In this document: positions 1 to 14,358 of the stretch, piece after piece
Numbering within the stretch: the first letter of the stretch is position 1
Layout of the letters: every line of letters begins with the position of its first letter
NCBI GenBank assembly: GCA_965215605.1
Contig: OZ244070.1
Location: 2,720,001-2,784,000, forward strand
Length of the DNA stretch: 64,000 nt
Source of the DNA: an uncultured Candidatus Binatia bacterium
GTDB taxonomy: Bacteria; Desulfobacterota; Binatia; UBA9968; JAJDTQ01
Direction: 5' to 3'
Notes under the pieces: model-generated
Seen by the model: the letters and a program-made list of their open reading frames with translations, nothing else
The model's database searches: none
Told to the model about the DNA's origin: nothing
Position numbers and translations under genes: made by a program

Positions 1-306
1 GGCTCCCCGGGCCCATATGCTCCAGGGGTAGGACTTCCGCAGTTCCCGGAAGTGGTCGCCCGCGGCGTCGTGCTTCCCGGCCTGCAGGGCGATTCGCCCG
101 AGATAGTAGAGGGCATGGTCGCCGAGGACCAGGTCGGGGTCGCCCAGTGCGCTTCGGAAGAGCGTTTCCGAGCGGGAGTGGTCGCCCTCCGAATAGTGGC
201 GGTAGGCGCGGGCGAACTCCGATTCCGACCCCGTGAGAGCGTGGACGGAAGCCGCCGCCGGCGCGAGCAGCAGAAACCAGACGAGGACGTAGAGACGCTT
301 TTTCAT
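1..306 (-). CDS. Secreted TPR-like protein, 5' part only (runs off the window; possibly a lytic transglycosylase N-terminus)
   Basis: Hand translation from ATG 306: MKKRLYVLVWFLLLAPAAASVHA (signal peptide), then DHALYYLGRIALQAGKHDAARDHFRELRKSYPWS (TPR-like helix pair); frame open to the window edge. Confidence 0.65.
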   Translation of the reverse strand, partial: MKKRLYVLVWFLLLAPAAASVHALTGSESEFARAYRHYSEGDHSRSETLFRSALGDPDLVLGDHALYYLGRIALQAGKHDAAGDHFRELRKSYPWSIWARGA

Positions 307-438
307 CGGCGTGCCGGATCGTTTCGGAATTGTAACAGGCACGGCGCCGGCGGGTAAGGTGCCGGGGGCTGTGGTATACTCGAATCCTGTCGTGCAGGTG
401 GAGGAGCCGCCGGCTCCGAATCCGAGGGCGGGGCATCG

Positions 439-1137
439 ATGGTCGACATCGCCGGTAACTGCAAACGGGTCCTGGAAGGAATCCGCCGCGCCGCGGAGCG
501 GAGCGGCAGGGATCCGCGGCAGGTCAGGCTGCTTGCCGCCACGAAGACCCAGCCCGTCTCCGCGGTGCGGGCCGCCGTGGAAGCGGGGGTGCGTCTGCTG
601 GGCGAGAACTACGTGCAGGAAGCGCAGGCCAAGAAGGATCTCGTCGGCGATATTGCCGAGTGGCACATGATCGGACACCTCCAGCGAAACAAGGTGCGGT
701 CCGCAGCGGAGTTGTTTTCGGTCATCCAGACCCTGGACAACCCGCGCCTGGCCCGGCTATTGGACCGGGAGGGGCGCGAGCGAAACCGGGACGTTCCTGT
801 GCTGGTGGAGGTCAACCTCACCGGAGAGCAGACCAAGACGGGCGTGGCCGAAGAAGGGCTTGCGCCGCTGTTGCGGGAGGTGTCCGGACTGGAACGGCTC
901 CGGGTCCGCGGCCTGATGATCGTGCCGCCGTTCGCCGAGGACCCGGAAGCGGGCCGCCCGCATTTCCGGAGGCTCCGGGAGTTGCGTGATTCGCTGAACG
1001 ACCTCGGCCTTGCCAACGTGGCCCTGGACGAGTTGTCCATGGGGATGACACATGACTATGAGGTGGCGGTGGCCGAGGGGTCGACGCTTGTGCGGGTCGG
1101 CACTGCCTTGTTCGGCCCCAGAGGCCCGTCGCGGTAA
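439..1137 (+). CDS. yggS: PLP homeostasis protein, YggS family
   Basis: LLAATKT, GENYVQE, WHMIGHLQRNK, LSMGMTHDY, VRVGTALFG motifs. Confidence 0.95.
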   Translation: MVDIAGNCKRVLEGIRRAAERSGRDPRQVRLLAATKTQPVSAVRAAVEAGVRLLGENYVQEAQAKKDLVGDIAEWHMIGHLQRNKVRSAAELFSVIQTLDNPRLARLLDREGRERNRDVPVLVEVNLTGEQTKTGVAEEGLAPLLREVSGLERLRVRGLMIVPPFAEDPEAGRPHFRRLRELRDSLNDLGLANVALDELSMGMTHDYEVAVAEGSTLVRVGTALFGPRGPSR

Positions 1138-1166
1138 GCGGGCTCAAACCAACCAGAGGTGGGGAT

Positions 1167-1466
1167 ATGTTCGTGGCGGGAAACTTTCTGCAGGCGGTCG
1201 CTGGACTTCTCGATTTCGCCTTGACTCTCTACGTGTGGCTGATCGTGGGGCGCGCCGTGATCTCCTGGGTCAATGCCGACCCCTACAACCCCATCGTGCG
1301 CATGCTCTGCAACCTCACCGATCCGGTCCTGGACCGGTTGAGGCAGATGCTTCCCATGAGCTTCGGCGGCATCGACATGTCGCCCGTCGCGGCCATCTTC
1401 ATCGCCTGGTTCCTGCGCGCCTTCCTGGTGACGTCGCTCTACGACCTGGCCCGGGCAGTGAACTAG
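1167..1466 (+). CDS. yggT: YggT family membrane protein
   Basis: RAVISWVNADPYNPIVR...LTDPVL...GGIDMSP; follows yggS. Confidence 0.92.
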   Translation: MFVAGNFLQAVAGLLDFALTLYVWLIVGRAVISWVNADPYNPIVRMLCNLTDPVLDRLRQMLPMSFGGIDMSPVAAIFIAWFLRAFLVTSLYDLARAVN

Positions 1467-1522
1467 TGTTCTGTCCCACGTAATTCTTCACCAAGATGCG
1501 CAGGATTTCTTGTCGTCGGCAA
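1463..1522 (+). repeat. MITE-like dispersed repeat, copy A (degenerate, truncated)
   Basis: CTAGTGTT...AAGATGCGCAGGATTTCTTGTCGTCGGCAA shared with 15829 and 24686; starts at the yggT TAG. Confidence 0.7.
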
Positions 1523-1562
1523 CAGGGCACCGCTAGCGTGGGCTTGGAACTTGGCCGTGTAG

Positions 1563-1860
1563 GTGGCCGACCTGCACGAGCGGGCGCACTCGGGAGCGTA
1601 CCGGGCGACGCCGTCGCGGCGCGTGAACATCCCCAAGCCCGACGGCGGGACACGACCGCTCGGCGTCGCGGCCATCGAGGACAAGATAGTCCAGAAGGCC
1701 GTGACGGAGACAATCCTGACACCGATATACGAGGCGGAGTTCCTGGGGTTCGGTTACAGGTTCCGGCCCGGACGTGGGACGCACGACGCGCTCACCGCGC
1801 TCACGACCGGAATAAAACGTCGCGAAATCACCTGGGTGGTGGACATTGACGTACGCGCTG
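1563..1860 (+). pseudogene. Group II intron reverse transcriptase fragment (N-terminal RT blocks only)
   Basis: YRATPSRRVNIPKPDGGTRPLGVAAIEDKIVQ...IYEAEFLGFGYRFRPGRGTHDAL...WVVDIDV; stops before PQG and YADD. Confidence 0.85.
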
Positions 1861-1892
1861 CAGGACTCGGCATCGCGAGAAGGAATCAAATC

Positions 1893-4232
1893 ATGCGGGA
1901 AAGCGCGCAGAACATGACATCCATGTCGAAGCCCGTTTTCTTCGATCTGGTAGTGGGTCGATACTTCTGGACGATAGCCGTCACATTCCTCGTGACCGCG
2001 GTTCTCGCCGCGGGAGTGCAGCACCTGATTACCGTCAATGTAGGCATCCGAAATCACTTCGATGAACATGACCGGCATTTGATCAAACTTGACGATTTCG
2101 AAGAGACCTACGCAGTGTCGGACAGCGTGCTCGTCATTGTCGCGCCGCCGAACGACACGGTTTTCACGCGCCAAGTACTCGTTGCGATTGAGCAACTGAC
2201 GGAGGTGTTGTGGCAAACGCCTTATTCTGTCCGTGTCGATTCGATAACCAATTACCTGCACACCGAGGGAATCGAGGACACCCTGATTGTCGAGCAGCTG
2301 GTCGACGATGCGGCTTTGCTGGACGAGGTCAAACTCGCCCGCATTCGACAGATTGCGCTCACCACACAGGACACGGCCGGCCGTTTCGTCTCTCGCGACG
2401 GTCGTGTGGCCGGGCTGATCGTGAGCCTGGCAATTCCCGATGAAAAACGGAAACAGCGCAAAATCGACGTGGTCGACGGTCTCTACGATCTTGTCAACAA
2501 ACAGCGCGCGGCCAACCCCGACATCGAATATCACATCTATGGTGAACTGTTGTTGAATCGGGCGGTTCGCGAGGCGCTGAATGAAGATATGTCCTTTTTG
2601 GCGCCCATCGCGTTTGCGATGATGGTTCTGGTGGCCATTCTATTGCTGTGGTCGGTTTGGAGCGTCTGTGGAATTTTTGCGATGATAATTGCGGTGATGG
2701 CATCGAGCTTCGGTTTAACCGGCTGGTTCGGATTGAAATTCTATGCGGAAAGCGGCGCTGCGGTATTCGTTCTGATGGCGATCGCCATCGCACACTCCGT
2801 CCACCTGATCGAAGGAATGACCGATGGAATGCGTCGTGGAATGGAACGTAAAGCCGCTGTTGTTCATTCCCTGCAAATCAATGCCCATCCGATATTTCTC
2901 ACTTCGCTCACAACCATGATCGGTTTTCTGAGCCTGAATTTCTCGGAAATGCCGCCGTTTCGAGTGATGGGAAATATCGTTGCGTTCGGCGCCATGTGCG
3001 CATTCGTTTACGCGGTCACGCTTTTGCCCGCATTGCTGGCGATGATGCCCATGCGGGCACCCGCCGAAAAGAGAAACGGAACGAAAACTTTCAAGCGTTT
3101 GGGAGATTTCGTCGTGTCCAAAAGCACCTTGTTGCTTTGGGCTTTCGTCATACTCGTTCTGGTGAGCGGATATGGCGTCTCGAGAATTAAACTGAACGAC
3201 AACAACAACGCCAAGCTGCTGAACGAAAGCTACGAGTTGCGCCGATCGGGGGATTTCATAAACGAGAACTTTTCCGGGCTGGATTCCTTCGAGTATTCAC
3301 TGGATTCCGGGCGTGCAGGGGGGATCACCGACATCGAGTACCTGCATCGGGTGGATTCGTTCGCCAATTGGCTTCGCGAACAGCCTGAAGTTTCTCACGT
3401 CACCTCGATGGCCGATATCATGAAGCGAATTAATCAGAATCTGCATAATGACGCAAAAGGCTCCTATGCCCTGCCGGCAAACTCCGACCTTGCGGCCCAA
3501 TACCTGCTTTTATACCAGTTCTCCCTACCGGTGGGCCGCGACATAAACAATCTCATCAACTTTGAGCGGTCGGCGACCCGGATGACCGTCGTGATCGGGG
3601 GAATGTCGGTCAAAGAGCAAATCGAGTTGGACAATCGCGCTTCTGCCTGGCTGGGAGAAAACGCGCCGCAAATGCGAACCGGAGCGACCGGCGTCGCCAT
3701 TGTCGGCGCTTACTCGGTGATGAGAAACATCGTAAATATGTTGCTCGGCACCTTCATCGCAATCTCGATCGTGTCGTTGCTGTTGATTTTTGCATTCAAA
3801 AGCCTTCGTTTGGGGCTTCTGAGCCTAATACCGAATTTCGTTCCAGCAATCATCGCCCTGGGGGCTTGGGGTTACGCGGTGGGAACCGTGAATATCGCCG
3901 CATCAATCGTTACCGCGATAGCGTTTGCCATCGTTGTGGACGACACCATCCATCTGCTGTCCAAATACCTGAAATCACGCGCAGAGGGCAAATCACCTTC
4001 CGAAGCTATCGCGCCGACTTTCGAGGTCGTTGGAAAACCGCTGTTAAGCACAACCTTGATTTTTGCGGTGGCATTTTTCGTCTTTGGCGCGTCGGGGCTG
4101 GTGACCAATCAGACGCTCGGGTTGCTGGTCGGAATGACGGTCATCGTTGCGCTCCTTGCGGACCTCTTTTTACTACCGCCGCTTCTGCTGGCGCTCGACA
4201 GGACGAAACACGGGCCAGCGCGCGGCGACTAG
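1893..4232 (+). CDS. MMPL/RND family lipid transporter (HpnN/sterol-transporter-like)
   Basis: Two repeats of TM1 + large loop + 5 TM; IFLTSLTTMIGFLSL and AIVVDDTIH motifs; ATG 1893 preceded by AGAAGGA. Confidence 0.88.
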   Translation: MRESAQNMTSMSKPVFFDLVVGRYFWTIAVTFLVTAVLAAGVQHLITVNVGIRNHFDEHDRHLIKLDDFEETYAVSDSVLVIVAPPNDTVFTRQVLVAIEQLTEVLWQTPYSVRVDSITNYLHTEGIEDTLIVEQLVDDAALLDEVKLARIRQIALTTQDTAGRFVSRDGRVAGLIVSLAIPDEKRKQRKIDVVDGLYDLVNKQRAANPDIEYHIYGELLLNRAVREALNEDMSFLAPIAFAMMVLVAILLLWSVWSVCGIFAMIIAVMASSFGLTGWFGLKFYAESGAAVFVLMAIAIAHSVHLIEGMTDGMRRGMERKAAVVHSLQINAHPIFLTSLTTMIGFLSLNFSEMPPFRVMGNIVAFGAMCAFVYAVTLLPALLAMMPMRAPAEKRNGTKTFKRLGDFVVSKSTLLLWAFVILVLVSGYGVSRIKLNDNNNAKLLNESYELRRSGDFINENFSGLDSFEYSLDSGRAGGITDIEYLHRVDSFANWLREQPEVSHVTSMADIMKRINQNLHNDAKGSYALPANSDLAAQYLLLYQFSLPVGRDINNLINFERSATRMTVVIGGMSVKEQIELDNRASAWLGENAPQMRTGATGVAIVGAYSVMRNIVNMLLGTFIAISIVSLLLIFAFKSLRLGLLSLIPNFVPAIIALGAWGYAVGTVNIAASIVTAIAFAIVVDDTIHLLSKYLKSRAEGKSPSEAIAPTFEVVGKPLLSTTLIFAVAFFVFGASGLVTNQTLGLLVGMTVIVALLADLFLLPPLLLALDRTKHGPARGD

Positions 4233-4400
4233 CTTCCGGGACGTTTTGTGATGGCCGAAGGCATGAGGCCCTGGACGCGCCGATCACCCCGGTTCCGCCG
4301 GCGTCTCGCGAGCAAACTTCCGCCCGTCCGCGTCCACGTTCGCGGCATGCCGTCATTCTCGACAGCGTCCGTATTGCCGGTCACGAGTGCAGGAGCACCT

Positions 4401-6419
4401 TCAAGACGAAATTTCGCGCAACTGGCTTGCGATGCGCAGCCGAAGTTTCTTCGTAACCGACAATGCCGGGAATGGGTTGATTTTCAGCTTATAGTCTTTG
4501 GGCGGCGGCGCAAAGTCAAAATGATGCGCTATAACCAACACGGTAACCGTCGCCTGCAAATGCATCCATGCCCATCCCGCGCACGAGTGGGTATCCAAGC
4601 CGTTCGGAGCGTATCCAGGACCTTGATGCTCATTGCGCGGCGGGAGGTAACGGTCGATATCGAAGTCGTAGGGGTCTGCGAAGCAATCACTCATGTAGTG
4701 GGCCGCGGTTTGCACAATGTACAACCGTTCCCTGAGCGGCAGTGAATAATTTTCCACCACGCAAGAATTTGCGACATCGCGAAGATGTGTGCTGATAATC
4801 GGATACATTCGCAAGCATTCCATGAGAAAGCGCCTGGTAACGTCATACTTGTCCGGCGTAAACGCTTCTTTATCCGGATCGCCGCCATCGAACAGCGCGT
4901 TTGCCTCTTCACGAATTCTCGCCGCAATATCCGGGTGCCGGGCCAACTCATAAAGCGCGAAACCCAACATGTCCCCTAGATAAATACTTTGAAACACGGG
5001 CGTTACCGCCATCATGAACATCAGGTTTTGCTCCGGGATAAACTGCGGATCGCTGCTGTGCAAAGAAATCAGCTCGTCCGCCAGCTCCCGGGCGGCGCCT
5101 GCACGGTGAATGGGAATGTGGTTCTGTTCGATGCGCCGAAGGAGTTTCTCGTAAAGCTGGAAGCGATACTTCATGCCGGGAGTGCGCGTCAGGAATTTCG
5201 GCAGAAAATCCGCAACGTAGCAAAGGATTGCTTTTTCATTCCATTTGACCAGGTCTTCAAATACATCTTGCGAATTCGTACTAATAAGAACCTGAGACAT
5301 TTGAAAATTGGTCATCGACCGGGTATCGCGCTGTACTTCCAGTGTCGAGCCTGCCTGCCACTTTTGAGTTATCATGAATTGGCGGCTCAGTCGGAACATG
5401 TCATCCAGCCGCTCATGGAAACTGGCCTTCGAGTAAATTTTCCCCATCAGCTTGCGCAATCGAAAATGATCAGCTCCGTCCGTCGACGGCAGTAAATTGT
5501 TTGCGCCGCAAACCGTCTCCATCTTGCGAAAAAAATTGCCGGAAGTCAAAAACCTTCGGGAATTTCGACGCATCCAATGATTGATGTCAGGTCCTGCCAA
5601 AAATGTTCGCGGCCTTTGAAACGGCGGACAGATTTGAAAGACGGGACCATATCGGTCGGCCAGATTCCCGAACAGCGCCGGGAGGTTGCCGTCCCACAAA
5701 TGCCGATTTGCAAACAAGCTCCTTAGGGGAATCTTCGGAATTGGTTTTGTGAGGGGTGAGTGTTGCAATACAGGCGTAATGGCGAGCTGCTTGACAGCAG
5801 TGGAGATGACCCGGTTGATCAGTTCCGTTTTACAAACCTGGTCAATTCGCTGTTTCTCGTTCTCACCCAGCTCGAAAATGAATTTGATGATATCGCACGC
5901 GTTCAAAAGACCGATTATCAGGGAATCCCTCGGGTCTGGAATGATATCCGTGAAAATCACCTTCGCGATTCGCGATTTGATGTACTTTCCAACGGTTTCG
6001 CTTTGGGGATATCGTTCCAATTCCGCATGCCAGGCGCAGTGGTTCGTTGTATAAAACTCACCATCATGGCGCGTCAGAATTTCGGAGTTGATCAACTGCT
6101 TCAGTGTAGCATCGATGATGTCTTCCGAATGAACTGCAAGCCGCTCAATCCAGTATCGCGGTTCTTCGAGATTGGGATGGGATGCAAACTCGTCCAGGCA
6201 TAGATCCAGTGCCGGGTCGCCTGTTTTGGTCGAGTCCAGGAGAAAGAGCGATTCTTCATCTGTATCAATGCGTGATTTCAGGGAGAGATCGGCCAGAACT
6301 GCGCCGATGGTGGCGCAGTTCAGCGTCCAGCCCTCCACTTGGTGGAAATAACCGTTCTGCTCGTTGAGAATCGTCAGGATGAATTCTTGCGGGATATTCA
6401 ACGATTGCTTCGTTATCAT
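4401..6419 (-). CDS. GPP34/GOLPH3-like domain fused to an atypical cytochrome P450
   Basis: N-terminal EFILTILNEQNG...GAVLADLSLKSRI...TGDPALD...YWIERL (GPP34 pattern); C-terminal ECLRMYP (ExxR), FDIDRY, heme loop PNGLDTHSCAG; start ATG 6419 (or 6431). Confidence 0.82.
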   Translation of the reverse strand: MITKQSLNIPQEFILTILNEQNGYFHQVEGWTLNCATIGAVLADLSLKSRIDTDEESLFLLDSTKTGDPALDLCLDEFASHPNLEEPRYWIERLAVHSEDIIDATLKQLINSEILTRHDGEFYTTNHCAWHAELERYPQSETVGKYIKSRIAKVIFTDIIPDPRDSLIIGLLNACDIIKFIFELGENEKQRIDQVCKTELINRVISTAVKQLAITPVLQHSPLTKPIPKIPLRSLFANRHLWDGNLPALFGNLADRYGPVFQICPPFQRPRTFLAGPDINHWMRRNSRRFLTSGNFFRKMETVCGANNLLPSTDGADHFRLRKLMGKIYSKASFHERLDDMFRLSRQFMITQKWQAGSTLEVQRDTRSMTNFQMSQVLISTNSQDVFEDLVKWNEKAILCYVADFLPKFLTRTPGMKYRFQLYEKLLRRIEQNHIPIHRAGAARELADELISLHSSDPQFIPEQNLMFMMAVTPVFQSIYLGDMLGFALYELARHPDIAARIREEANALFDGGDPDKEAFTPDKYDVTRRFLMECLRMYPIISTHLRDVANSCVVENYSLPLRERLYIVQTAAHYMSDCFADPYDFDIDRYLPPRNEHQGPGYAPNGLDTHSCAGWAWMHLQATVTVLVIAHHFDFAPPPKDYKLKINPFPALSVTKKLRLRIASQLREISS

Positions 6420-6499
6420 GTTACACGCCATTCCTCGTGATTTGATTCTTTCTCGTGATGCCGATGCCTGCGGCTTCCGGTCCCCTTTTTTCCATCCCT

Positions 6500-9400
6500 C
6501 TACGAGAACTTCTTTGCCGTTCCGGTTCTGCCGTCCGGCGTCATGTCCACAGCCGCCACTCTTCCAGCCATGACGCGTTGACTTCTCGCCGGTAATATCA
6601 TGTTCATTCGTTGGTTCCGGCGACGCTGCTCGTAGAGGGCAAGCGCGTGCAGGGGGAAATACTGGCGGTAGAGCACGTAATCCAGGAGCGCCGTTCGAAA
6701 AAAAACGCCGGCCATGTCCTGCTTGGGCCAAGTCCCGTCTGCTTCCTGCGTATCAAGCAGGAAGCCGGCACCCCGGGAAATCGCGGCCCAGTCTGTTGTG
6801 CCCGCCTCGAGGAGCGCTATCAGCGCCCACGCGGTCTGTATGACCTGGCTTTCCTGATGCGGGACGTAGCGACCGCTCAGGCAGCCGCTGTGGTGTTCGC
6901 CCCATCCCCCGTCTTGCTGCTGGCGCTCCAGCAGCCAGCGGCAAGACGCGCGCAGCGCCGGATCGCTTGGACCGGCCCGGTCCGAAACAAGGCCCCTGAT
7001 GCCGAAAAGGGTGCCGTAGATGTACTGTACCCCCCATACGCCGCGCCAACTGCCGTCAGCCATCTGGTGCCGTCGCAACCACAAGACGCCCCGGGCGATG
7101 GAGTCGGCAACCACCGACCTGTCGCCAATTTCGGGAAATCGATCCCGGCAGACAGCCAGCGCCGCGATACAAGACGCGGTACACTCGACAAAAGAACGCT
7201 CGGTCATCGATTCGCCGAACATCTCTGCAGGATTCAAGCGCTCCAGATCAATTGCCGAGCGCCTGGCCTCATAACTGCCGAAGCCGCCGTCGGGGTTCTG
7301 GCTTCGCAACATAAAGCCAATCGCTTCGCTGAGGACGGACGGGTCCGTGTCGTCTCCGTGGGCGGCGACGAGTCCGAGCACCGCCTCCGCCGTGCAGTCA
7401 CTCACCGGCCAGCCATGCCACCCGCCAGCGAAGCACCAGCCGCCTTTGGGGTCAGCGCGGTAGGCTTCACGAAACCGCTCAAAGCTGGTCTTGATCTGTT
7501 CGCCGAGCAGAAAATCGGCGCCGCGCTGGAGCGCATCCCGAACACGGTCCGTCTCAGGCATGGTAGCCAGAGCCTGCAGCACGAACCCGGTATCCCACGA
7601 AGCGCTTCTTGCTCCGGTGACCCGCAAGCCGTCGTCTTCGTCTTCCCATATCCAGGAACCCATTTTCGATAGCGCCCGTCGGCAATCGGTATCGTCCGGA
7701 TCGTGCAGCCACAGCGCCAGAATGTTGAGAATGCCGCTGACCGGAGAGATGCTCGTATGGCCGGTGGTCTGCAGTTCCCATCTGATCTGCCCGAGAATTG
7801 TATCCATGCACCGTGTGCGCAGGTGTTTGCTGTGGAACCGCTCGACCAGCCGTGCAAATCCATATCCGAGCCTGAGCCAGACGGACGGCCTTGCAAAAAG
7901 ATCGGCGTCCCGAAGCCGGTTCCTGGCGGCGAGAAAATCGGCCCTGGCAAAACCTTGCGGATAAAGCTCTTCCCGCAACGCGGCGATAACTGGTGTGACG
8001 GGCACCTGGAACCGGCGGGCATAAATCGACGCCATCGCCATATAGAGGAGCCGTGTATGGCAGTACCAGTTGGAGGGATGCAGCGGTATCTTCCGCGGCA
8101 GGCTCCACAATTCCGGCAGAACAGCGTTCACGCCGTTCCAATCATAAAGATTAAGGAGCGCCAGCCATAATTTTCCCCAGCTCGGAATGCCGAGAATCCC
8201 CTCGGCCTGAATGAACCGCCGGGCCGGCGCGATCAGGGGGTCATCCGGCAATACACCGAGCAGCCGCGCCGCGACATAAACGAGGGCGGTGACGAACAGA
8301 TGGGGCGACGAATGCTCGTGCAGGCCCCATGAACCGTCCTGGAGACGAGTCCTCTCAAACGAGCGCAGCACCCGGCGCCGCTTTCCCGGATCGAGCGGCT
8401 GGCCGATGATGTGGTGGAGCAGTACGTATTGCGCCGTGAGCATGGGACACCAGACCATCTCGCCTTCCCAGTCGCCGTCCTCTCTCTGCAGTTGCACGAG
8501 GCATTGGGCGGCGCTGTCCAGCGCCGGGCCGGCATCGGGCGAATCGACCTCTCCGGCGCGGGCAGGCCGCTCCGATTCGGTTTTCGAAGGGATGGAATAG
8601 GGGAATGCCCGTCGTAGGTGCTCTCGCGCATTCGCGCTTTCCTCCCTTCCTTCCCTGGTCGCCTCCCTCAACTGGCGGATGCCGAGCAGCAACCACCAAA
8701 GGCGAGCAGCCAACGCGCGAAAGTTCACCAACATCCGACGCCATGAAAGCCTGCGGATGGAGAAGGTTATCTCCCGGCTCATTGCCCGCGCGACAGTTTC
8801 GCAAAAGGAGAAAACCGTCATTGACATGGACAAGTCTTCGCAGGCAAGTATCCGCATGGTCCGGTCCCGATACCCCGAATTCGCTCGCCAGCCCTGGTAA
8901 ACGGCCTTTCTGAGCATAGCCGATTCGGTGCGGTAATCGCCCAACACCTCATAAAGCCCCATGGCAAGGAACTCGGGAACACGGGTCGCCTGGAACCGCT
9001 CTGCGGTGAATTGCTGGAAGTCCTCGCTTTTGGAGAGCGCCAGCGCATCGCCGAAGCCGAGAGTCATGCCGACTGCCGTCATGGGATGATAGTGTCCGGC
9101 GGCATCGCCGATAAGCACCCGGCGCGGGCTCCCGTACGTGACACGCGGTCTCAATTGGTTGGGGGCGGCATGGAATCGCCTGACGTGCAGCGCTTCGACG
9201 AAGGCTGGCCCGAGATATCCCGGAAGCAGCTTGCCATAGGATTCAGACAAGAAACTTATCCAGTCCTTGGAATTCCAGCAGTCCAATGGGACATCCACGT
9301 TGACCCGGACGGAGCCGTTCGCAAGTCCGTAAATGAAAATTGGACCCGGCCCGCCCAGAACCACATGTCCGTATCCTTCAAACGGCAGGTCGGCGTCGTG

Positions 9401-9955
9401 TAACGTCACCCCGAGCATCCGCGAACAGAGCATCGGGTCCATGGAATATCCCAAGGATCTGCGCACGATCGAAGCGCGGCCGTCGGCGCCGATAATTCGG
9501 TCGACATTTATGGCGCATTCCGAGGCGTTTTTCGAGAAGGTGATCCGTTCGTCTTCAACGACCTTGACCCGCGCGTGGGAAATGAAATCGACATTGGCCT
9601 CGTTCTCTATGACCTCGCGGAGGCTTGAAACGAGCAGCGCGTGGTCGCATACCAGACCCCGTGAACCGTCTGGATAAGGAAGCAGGATCGGGTCGGAGTC
9701 GTCGTCGGGCAGCACCACGAAACCGACGCCCGACTTGCTGCCGGAAAGCGTGTCGACATCAATCCCGATGTCACGCAACAACTTCACTGCCGGCGGATGC
9801 AACCATTCGCCTGCAAGGCGTTTAGACGCTTTCGGATTCGCTTCGAGCAGGGCCACCTTAACGCCCTTGCGCGCAAGGACAATTGCGCACACGCTTCCCA
9901 CCGGTCCCGCGCCGACAATGGCGGCATCATACTTCAGCACCGAGTCAGCCCTCAT
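6500..9955 (-). CDS. Squalene epoxidase - oxidosqualene cyclase fusion protein
   Basis: FAD monooxygenase motifs GAGPVG, RLAGEWLHP, GADG, LIGDAAGHYHPMTAVGM; then QW repeats, IPSWGKLWL, WYCHTR, HGWPVSDCTAE, GVFFRT..Y..YRQYFPL; start ATG 9955 or GTG 9940. Confidence 0.92.
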   Translation of the reverse strand: MRADSVLKYDAAIVGAGPVGSVCAIVLARKGVKVALLEANPKASKRLAGEWLHPPAVKLLRDIGIDVDTLSGSKSGVGFVVLPDDDSDPILLPYPDGSRGLVCDHALLVSSLREVIENEANVDFISHARVKVVEDERITFSKNASECAINVDRIIGADGRASIVRRSLGYSMDPMLCSRMLGVTLHDADLPFEGYGHVVLGGPGPIFIYGLANGSVRVNVDVPLDCWNSKDWISFLSESYGKLLPGYLGPAFVEALHVRRFHAAPNQLRPRVTYGSPRRVLIGDAAGHYHPMTAVGMTLGFGDALALSKSEDFQQFTAERFQATRVPEFLAMGLYEVLGDYRTESAMLRKAVYQGWRANSGYRDRTMRILACEDLSMSMTVFSFCETVARAMSREITFSIRRLSWRRMLVNFRALAARLWWLLLGIRQLREATREGREESANAREHLRRAFPYSIPSKTESERPARAGEVDSPDAGPALDSAAQCLVQLQREDGDWEGEMVWCPMLTAQYVLLHHIIGQPLDPGKRRRVLRSFERTRLQDGSWGLHEHSSPHLFVTALVYVAARLLGVLPDDPLIAPARRFIQAEGILGIPSWGKLWLALLNLYDWNGVNAVLPELWSLPRKIPLHPSNWYCHTRLLYMAMASIYARRFQVPVTPVIAALREELYPQGFARADFLAARNRLRDADLFARPSVWLRLGYGFARLVERFHSKHLRTRCMDTILGQIRWELQTTGHTSISPVSGILNILALWLHDPDDTDCRRALSKMGSWIWEDEDDGLRVTGARSASWDTGFVLQALATMPETDRVRDALQRGADFLLGEQIKTSFERFREAYRADPKGGWCFAGGWHGWPVSDCTAEAVLGLVAAHGDDTDPSVLSEAIGFMLRSQNPDGGFGSYEARRSAIDLERLNPAEMFGESMTERSFVECTASCIAALAVCRDRFPEIGDRSVVADSIARGVLWLRRHQMADGSWRGVWGVQYIYGTLFGIRGLVSDRAGPSDPALRASCRWLLERQQQDGGWGEHHSGCLSGRYVPHQESQVIQTAWALIALLEAGTTDWAAISRGAGFLLDTQEADGTWPKQDMAGVFFRTALLDYVLYRQYFPLHALALYEQRRRNQRMNMILPARSQRVMAGRVAAVDMTPDGRTGTAKKFS

Positions 9956-10298
9956 CAAAAGGCGCTGAGTGCAGCGCGGCGGCGGTTGTGGAGGGCAGGT
10001 CGCCGTCCTGGATCGAGAGCAGGAACGTTTCCGGACCCTCGATCTCGTCATCATACTCGGTGGGAATAGAGAAGCGGTACCGGGGCCACCCCGCCGGGAT
10101 AGTCACCGTGTAGGGGCCGCCCGTGTAGTCCCCTTGTTCCGACGCGGTCTGGTCCGTGTTCACCAAGGTAACAGTTGTATTCGTGATCCGAGGCCACGAG
10201 AACATCAGTTTCCAGCTCGAGCACCTCGCCTTTGGCCACCGAGTTGGTGTTGTCCAGATACGCAACACGCTTTTCGGGTCACTTCCCGTACCGGACAC
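9945..10298 (-). pseudogene. Calx-beta-like domain fragment of a surface protein
   Basis: TVTLVNTDQTASEQGDYTGGPYTVTIPAG...FSIPTEYDDEIEGPETFLLSI matches the Calx-beta pattern; no signal peptide or convincing start. Confidence 0.6.
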
Positions 10299-10687
10299 CG
10301 TATTGTATTGGTGTCAGCCCGGCCGGATCGGGCCGAATGCCGCTTAACCTATGAGTTTTGGGGTGTGCTCCTGCGTATTCACTCGAGAATGAGGTCTTGT
10401 ATTTCGAAAGCGATTCCCTTATCGGGTCAACCCGCAAACCATGTTCCATGGAATACCTTGGCTATGTGAACGAAATTTGTCAAGAAAATTGATTTGAAAT
10501 ATTTGGCATCATGAGCGCCCAGAAGCGATGGCTTTCGTCTATGACGCCGACGAGGACGCTGCTCCCCAGGTCCTCTGAGGTGGTCCCGGTTTGTAGGACA
10601 GGAAGGCCACCCACCGGGTGATAACCCGCTGGGCCGCGAAGCCGTCTGAGAGTTCGTGCAGTACTACGGCATTTTGTAGCGGCGGCC

Positions 10688-11002
10688 ATGGCCCGCAATC
10701 CCGGGAAAAGGCCGGATGCGCGTGCACTTCCTCCCGATCACAAACAGCCCCGCACGGCTCGTGGCGGCGAACCGGCGCTGCATGACCGCGGGACAATCGT
10801 GTGGACGTTCAGCATCGTGGATCAGGATGGACCTTGGGGTTGGCGTACCGCGGCCGCTCCGGCGTGGTGGGGAGAGATCCTGCCCAAGCTTCAGGACTTC
10901 GAATCGATGACGTGGGCTGAGATTATGCAGGTCGCCGGCGGACGAGCGAGAGGCAACAACAGTCACTTCGTGCAGGCAGAAAGATTGACCAGGCAAGCTT
11001 GA
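10688..11002 (+). pseudogene. Truncated conserved hypothetical protein (resembles RelE-like toxin partners of DUF4065/Panacea antitoxins)
   Basis: WTFSIVDQDGPWGW...LPKLQDFESMTWAEI...SHFV...L; stop codon supplied by a half-REP at 10999-11018. Confidence 0.45.
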
Positions 11003-11018
11003 AACCCGCCCTTCCTAC
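10999..11018 (-). repeat. Half GTAG-type REP
   Basis: Reverse complement GTAGGAAGGGCGGGTTTCAA, similar to the full copy at 54825-54849. Confidence 0.55.
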
Positions 11019-11037
11019 GGCGTCGTCCTGAGGATTG

Positions 11038-11124
11038 TGGTGCGAGGAGGGGGACTTGAACCCCCACGCCATTGCTGGCACTAGCCCCTCAAGCTAGCGC
11101 GTCTGCCTATTCCGCCATCCTCGC
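11038..11124 (-). tRNA. tRNA-Leu (anticodon GAG)
   Basis: GCGAGGATGGCGGAATAGGCAGACGCGCTAGC-TTGAGGG-GCTAG, long variable arm, GGTTCAAGTCC, encoded CCA; downstream of secG. Confidence 0.97.
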
Positions 11125-11145
11125 ACACATCTCGGTGGGCATCGT

Positions 11146-11493
11146 TCATGGAGAAGCCGGTTGTGCCGGCGGTTGCTCGGGACTCTCCGCCGCGGGTGGG
11201 TCGGCCGGGGCCGGCGCCGTCTGGGTTTGAGGGGCCACGGTTTCAAAGATGCTCGATACCGGATCCTGCTCGGCGAAGTACCCCAGGGTCAGACTGGTCA
11301 GCATGAACACCACGGCCATGCCGGTGGTCACCCGGGTCAGGAGATTGCCCGCGCCGCTGCCGCCGAAGACGGTGGTGCTGGCGCCTCCGCCGAAAGCGGC
11401 GCCCATGTCGGTTCCCTTGCCGGTTTGCAGCAGGACCACGACGATGAGTCCGAGGCAAACCAGAACGTGAACGGTCGTCACCAGGATGATCAT
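11146..11493 (-). CDS. secG: Preprotein translocase subunit SecG
   Basis: VLLQTGKGTDMGAAFGGGASTTVFGGSGAGNLLTR; ATGA overlap with the tpiA stop. Confidence 0.95.
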   Translation of the reverse strand: MIILVTTVHVLVCLGLIVVVLLQTGKGTDMGAAFGGGASTTVFGGSGAGNLLTRVTTGMAVVFMLTSLTLGYFAEQDPVSSIFETVAPQTQTAPAPADPPAAESPEQPPAQPASP

Positions 11494-12278
11494 GCGTCCT
11501 CTATCCGTGGGGTGTCGTTCGCCGCGAATGCGTTCACGATGGCGGCAAAGCTCCGTGGGTCGAGACTGGCGCCCCCCACGAGGACCCCGTCGACTTCCGC
11601 CACCGCGGCCAGCTCGGGCGAGTTGTGGGGGTTTACGCTGCCCCCGTACAGAATCGGTATCTCCCGCGCGATCTCTCCCCCGAGCCTGCGTGCCAGTCCT
11701 TGCCGTATCCAGCCGTGGGCTTCGGCGACCTGCGCCGGGGCGGCGTTCTTTCCGGTGCCGATGGCCCACACCGGTTCATACGCTACCGTGAGAAATTCAT
11801 TAACACTTTTCGAAACACCCTTCAACGCGCCCGACAGTTGCGTGGACAGGACCCGGCGCATGCGCCCGGCGCGGCGTTCCTGGAGGGTCTCCCCGATGCA
11901 CAGGATGGGTTTCAGGGACGCTTCCAGGGCGGCGGCGAGCTTCCGTCCGATGTCCCGGTCGGTCTCGCCGAAGAGGCGCCGTCGCTCGGAATGGCCCACG
12001 ATCACGTGGCTGCAGCCCGCGTCCCTCAGCATGCCCGCCCCGACTTCGCCGGTGAACGCCCCCTGGGGCTGCCAGTAAAGGTTCTGCGCGGACAGGAGCA
12101 GGGGGCTTCCCTTGAGCGCCCGGCGCACGGTTTCGAGGGAGGTGAAGGGCGGCGCCAGCACCACCTCGACGGCGGGGGAGCGGTTGCCCACCAGGCGCCG
12201 CACGCCGCGCGCCAGCGCCAGCGCCTCGGCCTGGGTACCGTGCATCTTCCAGTTGGCTATGACCGTGGGCCTTGCCAT
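11490..12278 (-). CDS. tpiA: Triosephosphate isomerase
   Basis: ANWKMH, GHSERR, AYEPVWAIGTG, LVGGASL. Confidence 0.98.
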   Translation of the reverse strand: MARPTVIANWKMHGTQAEALALARGVRRLVGNRSPAVEVVLAPPFTSLETVRRALKGSPLLLSAQNLYWQPQGAFTGEVGAGMLRDAGCSHVIVGHSERRRLFGETDRDIGRKLAAALEASLKPILCIGETLQERRAGRMRRVLSTQLSGALKGVSKSVNEFLTVAYEPVWAIGTGKNAAPAQVAEAHGWIRQGLARRLGGEIAREIPILYGGSVNPHNSPELAAVAEVDGVLVGGASLDPRSFAAIVNAFAANDTPRIEDA

Positions 12279-12293
12279 GGGTCGAAACGTCCT

Positions 12294-13481
12294 TCAGACG
12301 GCGCGGCCGTCTTCCAGCGCCCTTACGCCGGGAAGGGTCTTGCCCTCGAGAAATTCCAGCGCGGCGCCCCCTCCGGTGGACAGGTGGGTCATGTCGTCCG
12401 CAACTCCCGCAAGCCGCACGGCCGCCACCGTGTCGCCGCCCGCGATGACGGCGGCCGCCTCCGAGGCCGCCAGGGCCACGGCCACGGCCACGGTCCCGTG
12501 GCTGAACGGTTCCCGCTCGAACAGCCCCAGCGGGCCGTTCCACAGGACGATGGCCGTGTTTCCGAGTCTGTCGGCGAAGAGGGCCGCCGTCTCGGGACCG
12601 ATGTCCAGCCCGATGGCGTTTTCGGGGATATCCATGCCGGCCGTGACGGAGGGGTCGCCGGCGTCGATGTCGCCGGCGGTGACGTGGTCCACGGGCAGCA
12701 CGAACGGGACCCCGGCCGTCTCCGCCTCCGCCATGATCTCCCGGGCGACGGCGATGCAGTCCTTCTCCAGCAAGGACCGGCCCACGGCCACGCCTCGGGC
12801 GCTCAGGAACGTGTACGCCATGGCGCCGCCGACCATGATGAGGTCCACCCGGGGAATCAGGTTCCTGAGGATGCCGATCTTGTCCGAAACCTTGGCGCCG
12901 CCGAGGATGGCGGCCACCGGGCGTTCCGGCGCGCTCAGGATGCGCGACAGGTAGTCCACCTCCTGGTGGAACAGGAAACCCGCGCCTTTCTCCCGGAAGT
13001 GCCGGGCCATGCCGGCGGTGGAGGCGTGCGCCCGATGCGCGGCGCCGAAGGCGTCGTTGACGTAGACATCGGCCAGGCCCGCCAGCTCTGCCGCGAATTC
13101 CGGGTCGTTGGCTTCCTCGCCGGAGTGAAACCGCAGGTTCTCCAGCAGCAGGATACCGGCTCTCTGGGGGTCCGCGAGCAGTTGCCGGACTCCGGGGCCC
13201 ACGCAGTCCGGGGCGAGCCGCACGGGGCAGGACAGCGTCCGCTCCAGATAGCGTTGCACCGGCGCCAGGCTCCAACGGGGATCGCGCGTCCCGCCGGGAC
13301 GGCCCAGGTGGGAGGCGATGACGAGGCGGCGGGCCTTTTCCAGCAGGAATTCGATGGTGGGGAGCGCGCTGTCGATGCGGTGGGCCTCGGTGATGCCGCC
13401 GTCGGTCAGCGGCACGTTGAAGTCCACCCGAAGAAATACGGTTTTCCCCTCCAGATCCAGTTCCGAAACGCTGCGGAGCAT
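12294..13481 (-). CDS. pgk: Phosphoglycerate kinase
   Basis: RVDFNVP, SHLGRP, LLENLRF, DAFGAAHRAHAS, STGGGAALEFLEG. Confidence 0.97.
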   Translation of the reverse strand: MLRSVSELDLEGKTVFLRVDFNVPLTDGGITEAHRIDSALPTIEFLLEKARRLVIASHLGRPGGTRDPRWSLAPVQRYLERTLSCPVRLAPDCVGPGVRQLLADPQRAGILLLENLRFHSGEEANDPEFAAELAGLADVYVNDAFGAAHRAHASTAGMARHFREKGAGFLFHQEVDYLSRILSAPERPVAAILGGAKVSDKIGILRNLIPRVDLIMVGGAMAYTFLSARGVAVGRSLLEKDCIAVAREIMAEAETAGVPFVLPVDHVTAGDIDAGDPSVTAGMDIPENAIGLDIGPETAALFADRLGNTAIVLWNGPLGLFEREPFSHGTVAVAVALAASEAAAVIAGGDTVAAVRLAGVADDMTHLSTGGGAALEFLEGKTLPGVRALEDGRAV

Positions 13482-13617
13482 GAGTTCGCGGGTCCTTGTC
13501 GATCCGCACGACCGGCGACCGGGGCCGCTGCGGGTCACGGGGTCTGGGCGGGACCAATTGACTAGGAATTGACTAGGTACAGCGATTATAATAACTTTTC
13601 AAGATGGCAGGGTCTTG

Positions 13618-14358
13618 ATGCTGTACTTCTCGGTTTACCAACTAGCAATCCAACCTGACGTTTTGGGAGTGCAGCAAGAGGGCATCCTCGACTTGGTCAT
13701 GGGATCGGGTCCGGTGGTCCAGTTGGTGCTCTATCTGCTGATCCTCTTCTCGGTGGCCAGTTGGGGCATCATACTCTACAAGTTCAGGCACGTACGAGAG
13801 GCCAAGGTCCAGTCCGCCCGTTTCATCGAGATCTTCTGGGAAAGCCGCAACCTGGCCGAGATACGCAAGGCCAGTCAGGAGTTGCCGGCGAGCCCGGTGG
13901 CGCAGGTCTTCACCGCCGGATACGAGGAGTTGCTTCGGGTATCCCGTAGCAATGCGGCGGAAGCGGAGGGCCTGACCACCGACCTGAGCGGGGTGGACAA
14001 CGTGACGCGGGCCATGAAACGCGCCGCCAACGTCGAGTTGACGAAGTTGGAACAGACGTTGACATTCCTGGCCACGACCTCCGGCTCGACGCCGTTCATC
14101 GGACTCTTCGGTACGGTCTGGGGCATCATGAACGCGTTCCGCGGTCTCAGCGTCACCCGGTCATCCACGATCCAGGCGGTGGCGCCGGGAATCGCCGAGG
14201 CGTTGATCGCCACGGCCGCGGGCCTGGTGGCGGCGATTCCGGCGTTGATAGCGTACAACCACTTCCTTCAGGAGATCCGGGTGTTGACCACGGAAATGGA
14301 GAACTTCACGCAGGAGTTCCTCAACATCGCCGAGCGTCACTTCACCAAGAAGTCGTAG
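13618..14358 (+). CDS. tolQ: Tol-Pal protein TolQ
   Basis: PFIGLFGTVWGIMNAF, APGIAEALIATAAGL. Confidence 0.93.
   Translation: MLYFSVYQLAIQPDVLGVQQEGILDLVMGSGPVVQLVLYLLILFSVASWGIILYKFRHVREAKVQSARFIEIFWESRNLAEIRKASQELPASPVAQVFTAGYEELLRVSRSNAAEAEGLTTDLSGVDNVTRAMKRAANVELTKLEQTLTFLATTSGSTPFIGLFGTVWGIMNAFRGLSVTRSSTIQAVAPGIAEALIATAAGLVAAIPALIAYNHFLQEIRVLTTEMENFTQEFLNIAERHFTKKS

Follow-up and report, generated by a model that had tools for sequence, protein, structure and literature searches.

In a 64,000-nt stretch of the genome of an uncultured Candidatus Binatia bacterium (GenBank assembly GCA_965215605.1, contig OZ244070.1, positions 2,720,001 to 2,784,000), hereafter the window, three large genes lie between yggT and the 3' end of a tRNA-Leu(GAG) gene, on an inserted island (Table 1). 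They encode a squalene epoxidase-oxidosqualene cyclase fusion (SE-OSC), a fusion of a GPP34 domain with a cytochrome P450 (GPP34-P450, 'GPP34_L') and an MMPL/RND transporter with a sterol-sensing-type domain (SSD). A sequence-only reading of the window had proposed that this trio makes, modifies and exports a cyclic triterpenoid, and searches against Pfam and NCBIfam confirm the positions and the domains on which that proposal was built. We consider it probable that the three genes form a horizontally acquired cassette that makes a sterol-like lipid from the cell's own squalene, modifies it and moves it out of the inner membrane. Below, G000 denotes the source genome of the window, G001-G027 the other genomes of its genus, and numbers beginning with L denote GPP34-P450 loci.

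Gene content and insertion of the island

Gene starts were set from relatives. The SE-OSC open reading frame (ORF) runs from 6500 to 10054, and its start was placed at 9955, where the relatives' alignment begins. For GPP34-P450 (ORF 4401-6731) the relatives align from residue 102, which sets the start at 6431; with this start the gene does not overlap the cyclase gene, and the two are 68 bp apart. Relatives of the transporter align from about residue 99-109 of its ORF (1563-4232), so that its start lies at about 1893.

Table 1 Features of the island and of its chromosomal flanks (window positions).
Feature	Position	Strand	Basis
Inserted island, ~9.53 kb	1467..10995	.	Empty site in relatives, tRNA position, low GC
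yggT, left chromosomal flank, outside the island	1167..1466	+	Pfam YGGT 1.8e-20
56-nt dispersed repeat, left border	1467..1522	.	6 further genome copies, 79-93% identity, some inverted pairs
Group II intron reverse transcriptase fragment	1563..1860	+	TIGR04416 8e-28, model positions 38-131 of 353; Pfam RVT_1 8.1e-07
27-nt leader element, copy 1	1867..1893	+	Directly upstream of the MMPL start
MMPL/RND transporter with sterol-sensing-type domain, 779 aa	1893..4232	+	Pfam MMPL, Sterol-sensing, Patched SSD
GPP34-cytochrome P450 fusion ('GPP34_L'), 676 aa	4401..6431	-	Pfam GPP34 1.8e-22 and p450 6.7e-22
27-nt leader element, copy 2	6438..6464	-	Directly upstream of the GPP34-P450 start
Squalene epoxidase-oxidosqualene cyclase fusion, 1151 aa	6500..9955	-	Pfam, TIGR01787, 1W6K alignment
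A/T-richer non-coding stretch upstream of SE-OSC	10303..10532	.	82% identical over 230 nt to its L031 counterpart
Short dispersed repeats near right border	10575..10661	.	14 further genome copies, 32-60 nt, 80-97% identity
tRNA-Leu(GAG), right chromosomal flank	11038..11124	-	ARAGORN; Rfam tRNA, 53.1 bits

The epoxidase part of SE-OSC matches SE (PF08491, 6.3e-22, 78.4 bits against a cut-off of 20.1) and FAD_binding_3 (PF01494, 1e-20) and holds an FAD-binding Rossmann motif (GAGPVG), and the cyclase part matches SQHop_cyclase_N (PF13249, 3.9e-51) and SQHop_cyclase_C (PF13243, 4.1e-55); against TIGR01787 the protein scores 505.5 bits, over the cut-off of 322.7. All 120 relatives among the matches listed are fused proteins of 1044-1184 aa, annotated in their sources merely as 'FAD-dependent monooxygenase'. 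GPP34-P450 has 621 relatives; among the 120 listed, 118 carry both PF05719 and PF00067, and 117 are 50-99% identical over at least 97% of the query, the other three being truncated forms. The transporter matches MMPL (PF03176, 7.4e-36, 124.2 bits against a cut-off of 20.5, in two stretches), Sterol-sensing (PF12349, 1.3e-07, 32 bits against 22.3) and the Patched SSD family (PF02460, 9.6e-06, 25.9 bits against 23). In NCBIfam it reaches HAE3 (6.5e-53) and HpnN-like (7.9e-28), both under their cut-offs, and among solved structures it is closest, though weakly (2e-09), to the mycobacterial MmpL4 and MmpL5.

The insertion extends from 1467 to about 10995, in the spacer between yggT and tRNA-Leu(GAG) and about 40 bp from the 3' end of the tRNA gene, which points towards the island. 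These limits are set by the three nearest relatives, G014, G016 and G022, the only ones for which an alignment was made (92-95% nucleotide identity in the flanks), in which the site is empty: their alignment covers window positions 1-1466, with yggT at 94-95% aligned identity up to base 1466, and resumes from 10991-11032. In G014 the two flanks are 12 bp apart at the empty site, with tRNA-Leu(gag) 52 bp downstream of yggT. DNA of yggS-yggT, searched in the 27 other genomes of the genus, was found in 26 (the one without a match is 76% complete), and each of these 26 has tRNA-Leu(gag) no more than about 1.1 kb from yggT, the distance in G021 being about 1.1 kb. The island had been drawn from 1467 to 11037; the left end stands, and the right end moves in to about 10991-10999.

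Among the marks of a tRNA-associated genomic island, insertion at the 3' end of a tRNA gene and an empty site are both present, and an integrase and direct repeats are not: neither Pfam nor PHROGs found an integrase or transposase in the island, and a search for flanking (att-like) direct repeats around it found none. Its borders had been described as decayed mobile sequence. This is borne out on the left by the 56-nt repeat and by the reverse transcriptase fragment, which is in frame with the MMPL ORF and makes up the first 100 codons of that long frame, and of which no full copy was found in the genome. On the right only short dispersed repeats were found and no recognisable mobile gene, given that the small ORFs at 9945-11002, like those at 1496-1849, gave no Pfam or PHROGs match. 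The two repeat families at the island ends (1467-1522 and 10575-10661), some of them in inverted pairs, look like repetitive extragenic palindromic (REP) or miniature inverted-repeat transposable elements (MITE).

Sequence comparison indicates that the cassette was recently transferred horizontally, because a core of about 8.1 kb (1899-10001, 8103 nt) is 96.5% identical at the nucleotide level to G021, a genome in which yggS-yggT is only 74% identical to that of the window, the lowest value in the genus (95% in G014, G016 and G022). Nothing else of the island aligns to G021, and the flanks of the cassette there are unrelated to those in the window. With the empty site in the three nearest relatives, this core, shared despite differing flanks, upholds the horizontal acquisition that the sequence-only reading had assumed. 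The proteins are near-identical between the two genomes (98%, 98% and 91%, the last being the MMPL protein), and the lower figure for MMPL may reflect recombination inside the cassette. In G001 the trio is found in unchanged order, with protein identities of 64-76% (76% for MMPL), and G026 holds a cassette fragment at a contig end. Hence the three genes do occur together elsewhere, in G021 and G001, as the initial proposal required, and we think it rather probable that the three-gene cassette circulates among sponge-type symbionts.

Within the cassette, the 27-nt leader element has exactly two matches in the window, against none expected (100 shuffles). Copy 1 lies within a 49-nt inverted repeat with 6426-6474; the element is kept upstream of GPP34-P450 in G021/L023, L024 and L031, and its MMPL copy was not found in G021. 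It may be a shared regulatory site, either an operator or a leader. The A/T-richer stretch upstream of SE-OSC, which has no match to an Rfam family, is possibly a promoter or regulatory region as judged from its conservation in L031. A promoter and terminator scan of the island gave no more matches than shuffled sequence, and an Rfam scan of window positions 1-12000 gave the tRNA as its sole match. Beyond the tRNA, positions 11146-13565 have a GC content of 0.70 and long overlapping ORFs on both strands, of which three were scanned and had no Pfam match; they are followed by MotA/ExbB at 13615-14358.

Squalene supply and resident sterol-type genes

Squalene had been expected to come from elsewhere in the genome or from a host, and its source is a resident hpnC-hpnD-hpnE operon at G000:C1:1544158-1547170, 1.18 Mb from the island, which contains two of the three SQS_PSY genes of the genome. 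All three products are over their NCBIfam equivalog cut-offs (HpnC 273.4 bits against 250.45, HpnD 313.1 against 278.6, HpnE 387.7 against 283.05). The third SQS_PSY gene (crtB-like, C1:2877571) was rejected as a squalene synthase; it adjoins a crtI-type desaturase and is probably carotenoid-related. The surrounding region (G000:C1:1538000-1548000) holds dxs, a LolA-like gene and a 417-aa unknown ORF, with ispH-hpnE-hpnD-hpnC on the other strand. The LolA-like protein (G000:C1:1541013-1541756) shares 63% identity with its counterparts found alongside the window-type pump in other symbionts, and on this likeness the partner carrier of the pump is likely to be encoded at the squalene locus and not in the island. 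HpnE is over its cut-off in 26 of the 28 genomes of the genus, so that recipients within the genus already make squalene. A cyclase domain was found in three of the 28; most of the genus seems to make squalene without a cyclase to use it.

Enzymes that would take a protosterol further were sought across the genome. Pfam found neither ERG24 nor Sterol_MT_C, although the controls of that scan gave no match either, and tblastn with proteins from related loci found no ERG24 (three query proteins), no epimerase/3beta-HSD and no intact sterol methyltransferase (SMT). The sole match to a CYP51-like P450 query, at 26%, was the second full-length P450 of the genome (C1:3749204), which was itself rejected as a CYP51, its best solved match being an unrelated 'putative P450' (7wzl).

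Outside the window, G000 carries a decayed second sterol-type cluster (G000:C1:1142820-1144910), in which MMPL is reduced to its first ~140 codons, an SMT fragment (~156 of 357 codons) stands beside this remnant, and a GPP34-P450 gene lacks ~950 nt of its P450 core. At the syntenic position in G014, the genes for MMPL, amine-oxidase, Rieske/KshA_C and GPP34-P450 are all intact. Because the resident copy is decayed while its counterpart in G014 is intact, G000 has lost the older cluster of the genus and has gained a cassette that would add de novo synthesis. The GPP34 domain itself is found in 27 of the 28 genomes: many have open frames of ~680-740 aa that begin with it and no cyclase in the genome, and a short single-domain gene of the 'GPP34_S' type (G000:C1:3158416-3159012 in the source genome) is conserved in nearly all.

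Neighbourhoods, protein roles and competing explanations

We confirmed 495 GPP34-P450 loci (one genome per species), with record titles naming Binatia, Alpha- and Gammaproteobacteria, Nitrospirales, Chloroflexota/Dehalococcoidia, Latescibacterota, Gemmatimonadota, Opitutia and others. Neighbourhoods were counted in the 80 best loci with 10-kb flanks, where ORFs were called and clustered all against all, recurrent clusters were named by Pfam and recurrent antisense ORFs were set aside. Among the recurrent neighbours are a Rieske/KshA_C oxygenase (47 of the 80 loci), a sterol methyltransferase (Sterol_MT_C, 45), an FAD amine-oxidase-like protein (37), SSD-MMPL transporters of a second type (31) and of the window type (21), the SE-OSC fusion (16), ERG4/ERG24 (16), AcrB-type RND (11), Rieske/VanA_C (10), LolA-like, LppX-like, MFS and ABC ATPase proteins (9 each), a further P450 (8) and an epimerase/3beta-HSD (8). 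One or more sterol enzymes occur in 68 loci, an SSD-MMPL of one of the two types in 52, and any of these in 73; one of the seven loci that have neither is a 2.9-kb contig. The titles of the 16 records in which SE-OSC lies within 10 kb of GPP34-P450 span several classes and phyla, and 12 of these loci also hold the window-type MMPL. From this gene content, the P450 and the pump in all probability belong with sterols.

Loci L047-L102, from Chloroflexota/Dehalococcoidia, repeat the order amine-oxidase, Rieske, GPP34-P450, SMT, SSD-MMPL, often accompanied by an LppX-like lipoprotein and an MFS gene. As to habitat, run X8, which is labelled as a sponge metagenome, holds variants at 90-99% identity in 27 of 30 bins; the titles of GPP34-P450 relatives include a 'Poriferihabitans' metagenome-assembled genome, and their isolate names match data sets named in PMC11706023.

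Taken as a pathway, the cassette would draw squalene from the resident HpnC-HpnD-HpnE, encoded near dxs, ispH and the LolA-like gene. The N-terminal, FAD-dependent squalene epoxidase of the fusion would epoxidise it and the C-terminal oxidosqualene cyclase would turn the epoxide into a lanosterol-type protosterol, with the fusion channelling 2,3-oxidosqualene between its two sites. GPP34-P450 would then work on that sterol, or on sterols of the host or community, and the SSD-type MMPL/RND pump would carry the lipid from the inner membrane towards the outer membrane or the cell exterior. The pump most likely acts as an exporter from the inner membrane, given the analogy with HpnN and BstA, for which transport of hopanoids and 4-methyl sterols in the direction of the outer membrane is reported (PMC10942540).

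The strongest competing explanation is that the P450 and the pump mainly handle sterols of the host sponge or of neighbouring microbes, in uptake, remodelling or detoxification, and that SE-OSC is an add-on in some lineages, in which case the cassette would not be a self-contained unit for making, modifying and exporting a sterol. We checked 10 other genomes that have GPP34-P450 without an OSC within 10 kb. Four have an SE-OSC-sized cyclase frame elsewhere, three have no cyclase, and three Dehalococcoidia (G061, G066 and G067) have only a squalene-hopene cyclase (SHC)-like one (~1e-130 to the SHC model). Given that such genomes exist, the P450 is not tied to sterol synthesis in its own cell. 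The clusters of these genomes still hold sterol methyltransferase, Rieske oxygenases and SSD pumps, and in the three Dehalococcoidia this points to sterol methylation without sterol synthesis of their own. The genus offers a similar picture, with the ~680-740 aa GPP34-starting frames in many genomes and a cyclase in just three of 28, and with MMPL, amine-oxidase, Rieske and GPP34-P450 genes but no OSC in G014. Against this, the P450 gene lies within 10 kb of SE-OSC in 16 of the 80 loci and in the window, where the two are immediate neighbours, the cassette moved as one 8.1-kb unit, and RND pumps are generally exporters. We therefore regard handling of mainly foreign sterols as unlikely, and a cassette that makes and exports its own sterol-like lipid as the better account.

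Several findings weigh against that account besides the genomes with no cyclase or only an SHC-like one. The model that scores SE-OSC best by far, TIGR03463 (osq_cycl), gives 729.3 bits, below its cut-off of 851, a score that the fusion may affect. The pump falls far below the curated cut-offs of HpnN (NF052374, 33.3 against 1100; TIGR03480, 96.9 against 751.85) and of BstA (19 against 1400). No ferredoxin or reductase gene was found in the island. The set of 80 loci was chosen for closeness to the query, and related genomes within it do not count as independent. Finally, the P450 is not a CYP51 and is without the usual I-helix acid-alcohol pair (A/G-G-x-D/E-T), which in P450s serves oxygen activation; such a lack is known among P450s of unusual chemistry. 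Hence ordinary hydroxylation cannot be assumed, and the reaction may be something other than plain hydroxylation.

The P450 domain nonetheless has the invariant elements of a heme enzyme in 52 sequences, namely the heme Cys617 (H615-x-C617-x-G619) and E538-x-x-R541. Its best solved sequence relatives are CYP51s, weakly (4.6e-14), with Methylococcus CYP51 aligned over residues 27-418. In place of the AGHHTS of CYP51B1 stand the invariant S482, Y484, G486 and D487 (QSxYxGD), which lie in a long helix (467-498) of an AlphaFold2 model of GPP34-P450 (mean pLDDT 86.6, pTM 0.73). A fold search against the Protein Data Bank (PDB) recovered the P450 fold at a target-normalised TM-score of ~0.78-0.80, with generic class-II P450s (BM3, CYP184A1, CYP51), and the highest identity among the listed matches, 20%, is to a lanosterol-bound Methylococcus CYP51; the search gave no specific lead, and the GPP34 part was unmatched among the matches listed. 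An assignment to CYP51 was rejected, given the best E-value of just 4.6e-14 and the missing HTS signature of the I-helix.

The protein family has been described before. Ferreira et al. (Microbiome 2025, PMC11706023) report 656 GPP34_L proteins, with GPP34 and P450 domains, from sponge symbionts, and propose that they bind phosphatidylinositol 4-phosphate (PI4P) and block phagosome maturation; the window protein shares this two-domain architecture and the length of ~670 aa, and the record titles and the sponge-metagenome run above point to the same habitat. If it were such a secreted PI4P-binding effector acting on phagosome maturation in the sponge, its sterol neighbours would be incidental. 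This explanation can point to a family reported as exclusive to sponge symbionts, in many phyla and in none of 85 free-living genomes (PMC11706023), and to a recognisable GPP34 fold: searched against the PDB by phmmer, the isolated domain gave too weak a match (E 0.33), whereas a profile of 17 GPP34 domains reached GOLPH3 (3KN1) at 2.6e-05, next to the Pfam match, and W81 of GOLPH3 is kept (as W35). In the same alignment, however, R90 is replaced by I/V, R171 by E and R174 by I, and the 10-residue loop bearing R171 and R174 is absent, a mapping that is moderately safe as the alignment is weak. W81, R90, R171 and R174 are described as the key PI4P contacts, and R90L alone as abolishing binding (PMC3596250). 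Loss of three of the four PI4P residues is moderate evidence against GOLPH3-like PI4P binding, and the GPP34 domain is probably a module for lipids or membranes, not one that reads PI4P. Inspection of the N-terminus by eye, with no predictor, showed no hydrophobic signal-like stretch; a heme P450 needs cytoplasmic redox partners; and the gene stands beside sterol enzymes or SSD/RND transporters in 73 of the 80 loci. Because of this neighbourhood and the lost PI4P residues, GPP34-P450 is more likely a sterol-pathway enzyme, and we hold a role as phagosome effector to be improbable. In the main text of PMC11706023 the words sterol, squalene, cyclase and MMPL have no occurrences, though its supplements may show neighbours; a secreted effector is proposed there, whereas in the window the gene belongs to a mobile sterol cassette and its product keeps one of the four PI4P residues.

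Among solved structures, the cyclase matches human lanosterol synthase best (1W6K, 1.3e-134). Its VSDCTAE motif retains D455 and C456, with GWPVSDCTAE aligned to human W451-E459; we take SHC-type cyclases to be marked by DxDD, as against the xSDCTAE of oxidosqualene cyclases. The product-linked positions (human numbering) are A381, H449 and V453. In the bacteria tested by Wei et al. (PMC4919349), V453 goes with lanosterol, in complete correlation, and I453 with cycloartenol, and H449 is a cycloartenol-type residue. Our best guess for the product is lanosterol, perhaps with parkeol. A non-steroidal triterpenol, for example of the arborane or parkeol type, could be argued from the mixed set of product-linked residues, with H449 of the cycloartenol type (PMC4919349), and from the arborane-making bacterial OSCs cited (Banta 2017) in the reference list of PMC9531527; V453, with its full correlation with lanosterol, and the match to human lanosterol synthase both speak for a sterol, and we give the non-steroidal alternative little credence.

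The three genes had been noted to have more A/T-rich codon usage than the flanks, which their composition bears out. GC content is 0.658 in the genome and 0.571 in the island; it is 0.540 in MMPL, 0.509 in GPP34-P450 and 0.611 in SE-OSC, with third-position values (GC3) of 0.667, 0.604 and 0.716, respectively, against 0.84 in yggS and 0.89 in yggT. Both junctions are spanned without a single difference by short-read (Logan) contigs of run X1 (1-1662 and 10491-11106), though X1 may be the genome's own source sample and hence not independent support. In run X5 we found the empty-site joint, from 1447 to 11032 with 34 other letters between, and four runs, one labelled sponge metagenome, hold cassette variants of 90-99% identity at higher depth. 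Among the runs listed as holding the stretch, none is an RNA run. Shares under 0.2, in runs X9-X20, were left out of account, as were island parts lacking exact-match cover in the contigs. That the assembly is chimeric or the genome bin contaminated, as the contamination estimate of 5.74%, the deviating GC of the island and the much greater depth of cassette variants than of flanks in the examined runs might suggest, is very improbable in view of the X1 contigs across both junctions (subject to the same caveat on their origin), flanks that stay syntenic with relatives as far as the insertion point, and G021 and G001, independent genomes that hold the same three genes inside long contigs.

Comparison with known systems and significance

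Several parts of the cassette have published counterparts. The cluster of steroid genes (CSG, ERG24-CYP51-LSS) of symbionts of Ircinia sponges is reported to have spread by horizontal gene transfer (Kelly et al., Microbiome 2022, PMC9531527) and resembles the window in being a horizontally spread sterol cluster with a lanosterol-synthase homologue, in sponge symbionts of many phyla including Binatia. The window cassette differs in having no ERG24, CYP51-type P450, SMT or C-4 demethylase, none of which was found elsewhere in the genome, and in adding GPP34-P450 and an SSD pump, neither of which is mentioned in the available text of PMC9531527. The CSG order (epimerase/3beta-HSD, Rieske, ERG24, P450, SE-OSC) adjoins GPP34-P450 in L026, L034, L036, L045, L071 and L074, and in L035 it does so without the cyclase. 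Since the CSG order comes with its own P450, GPP34-P450 is an extra gene and not the CYP51 of the CSG. CYP51s, as the closest solved relatives of the P450 domain, are very distant ones, in which AGxxTS stands where GPP34-P450 has the invariant QSxYxGD; a separate CYP51-like P450 co-occurs with GPP34-P450 in 8 of the 80 loci, so that GPP34-P450 is no replacement there.

Fused squalene monooxygenase (SMO)/OSC homologues, with the N-terminal monooxygenase and C-terminal OSC in one polypeptide as in the window, were reported by Brown et al. (Nat Commun 2023, PMC10070321), who trimmed them before tree-building; the available text gives no function or gene context for them. Like BstA/BstB/BstC of Methylococcus capsulatus and HpnN, systems built on inner-membrane MMPL-family RND proteins reported to move a polycyclic triterpenoid to the outer membrane (PMC10942540), the window pump belongs to the MMPL-family RND proteins and has genes of sterol synthesis next to its own. 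It differs from BstA and HpnN in its SSD/Patched-type signature and lies outside both families by curated score; a LolA-like carrier accompanies the window-type pump in 9 of the 80 loci, the partner thus being LolA-like and not BstB or BstC.

The sequence-only reading knew of no described system with this combination. For the linkage of the three genes this still holds as far as our literature searches reach: they found no link of GPP34-P450 to sterol genes or SSD pumps, and no three-gene cassette in print, though supplements may show neighbours. It does not hold for the separate parts, which are published (PMC10070321, PMC9531527 and PMC11706023). What is new is apparently the linkage, the fused SMO/OSC, the sponge sterol clusters and GPP34-P450 being already known. 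On balance, we favour the view that the island is a minimal, mobile form of a sponge-symbiont sterol cluster, built around GPP34-P450. More tentatively, GPP34_L may be the hallmark atypical P450 of a horizontally shared, multi-phylum sterol toolkit of sponge symbionts, acting with SSD-type RND pumps on protosterols rather than as a phosphoinositide binder, with the window as its smallest mobile form, replacing a decayed resident cluster.

Bacterial sterol synthesis is rare, and debate surrounds it both as a possible evolutionary origin of eukaryotic sterols and because it may confound sponge sterane biomarkers. If the more tentative reading is right, an 8.1-kb cassette would make any squalene-making bacterium a producer and exporter of a modified sterol, and symbionts would supply or remodel part of the sterol pool of the sponge holobiont, with a bearing on sponge sterane biomarkers. 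The genome is also a natural experiment, in which a minimal, recent cassette with an exact insertion point meets an existing squalene supply and a decayed older cluster. For the GPP34-P450 family, sterol tailoring and export would provide a testable setting that competes with the published effector hypothesis, and the three genes together with hpnCDE are few enough for the pathway to be rebuilt in the laboratory.

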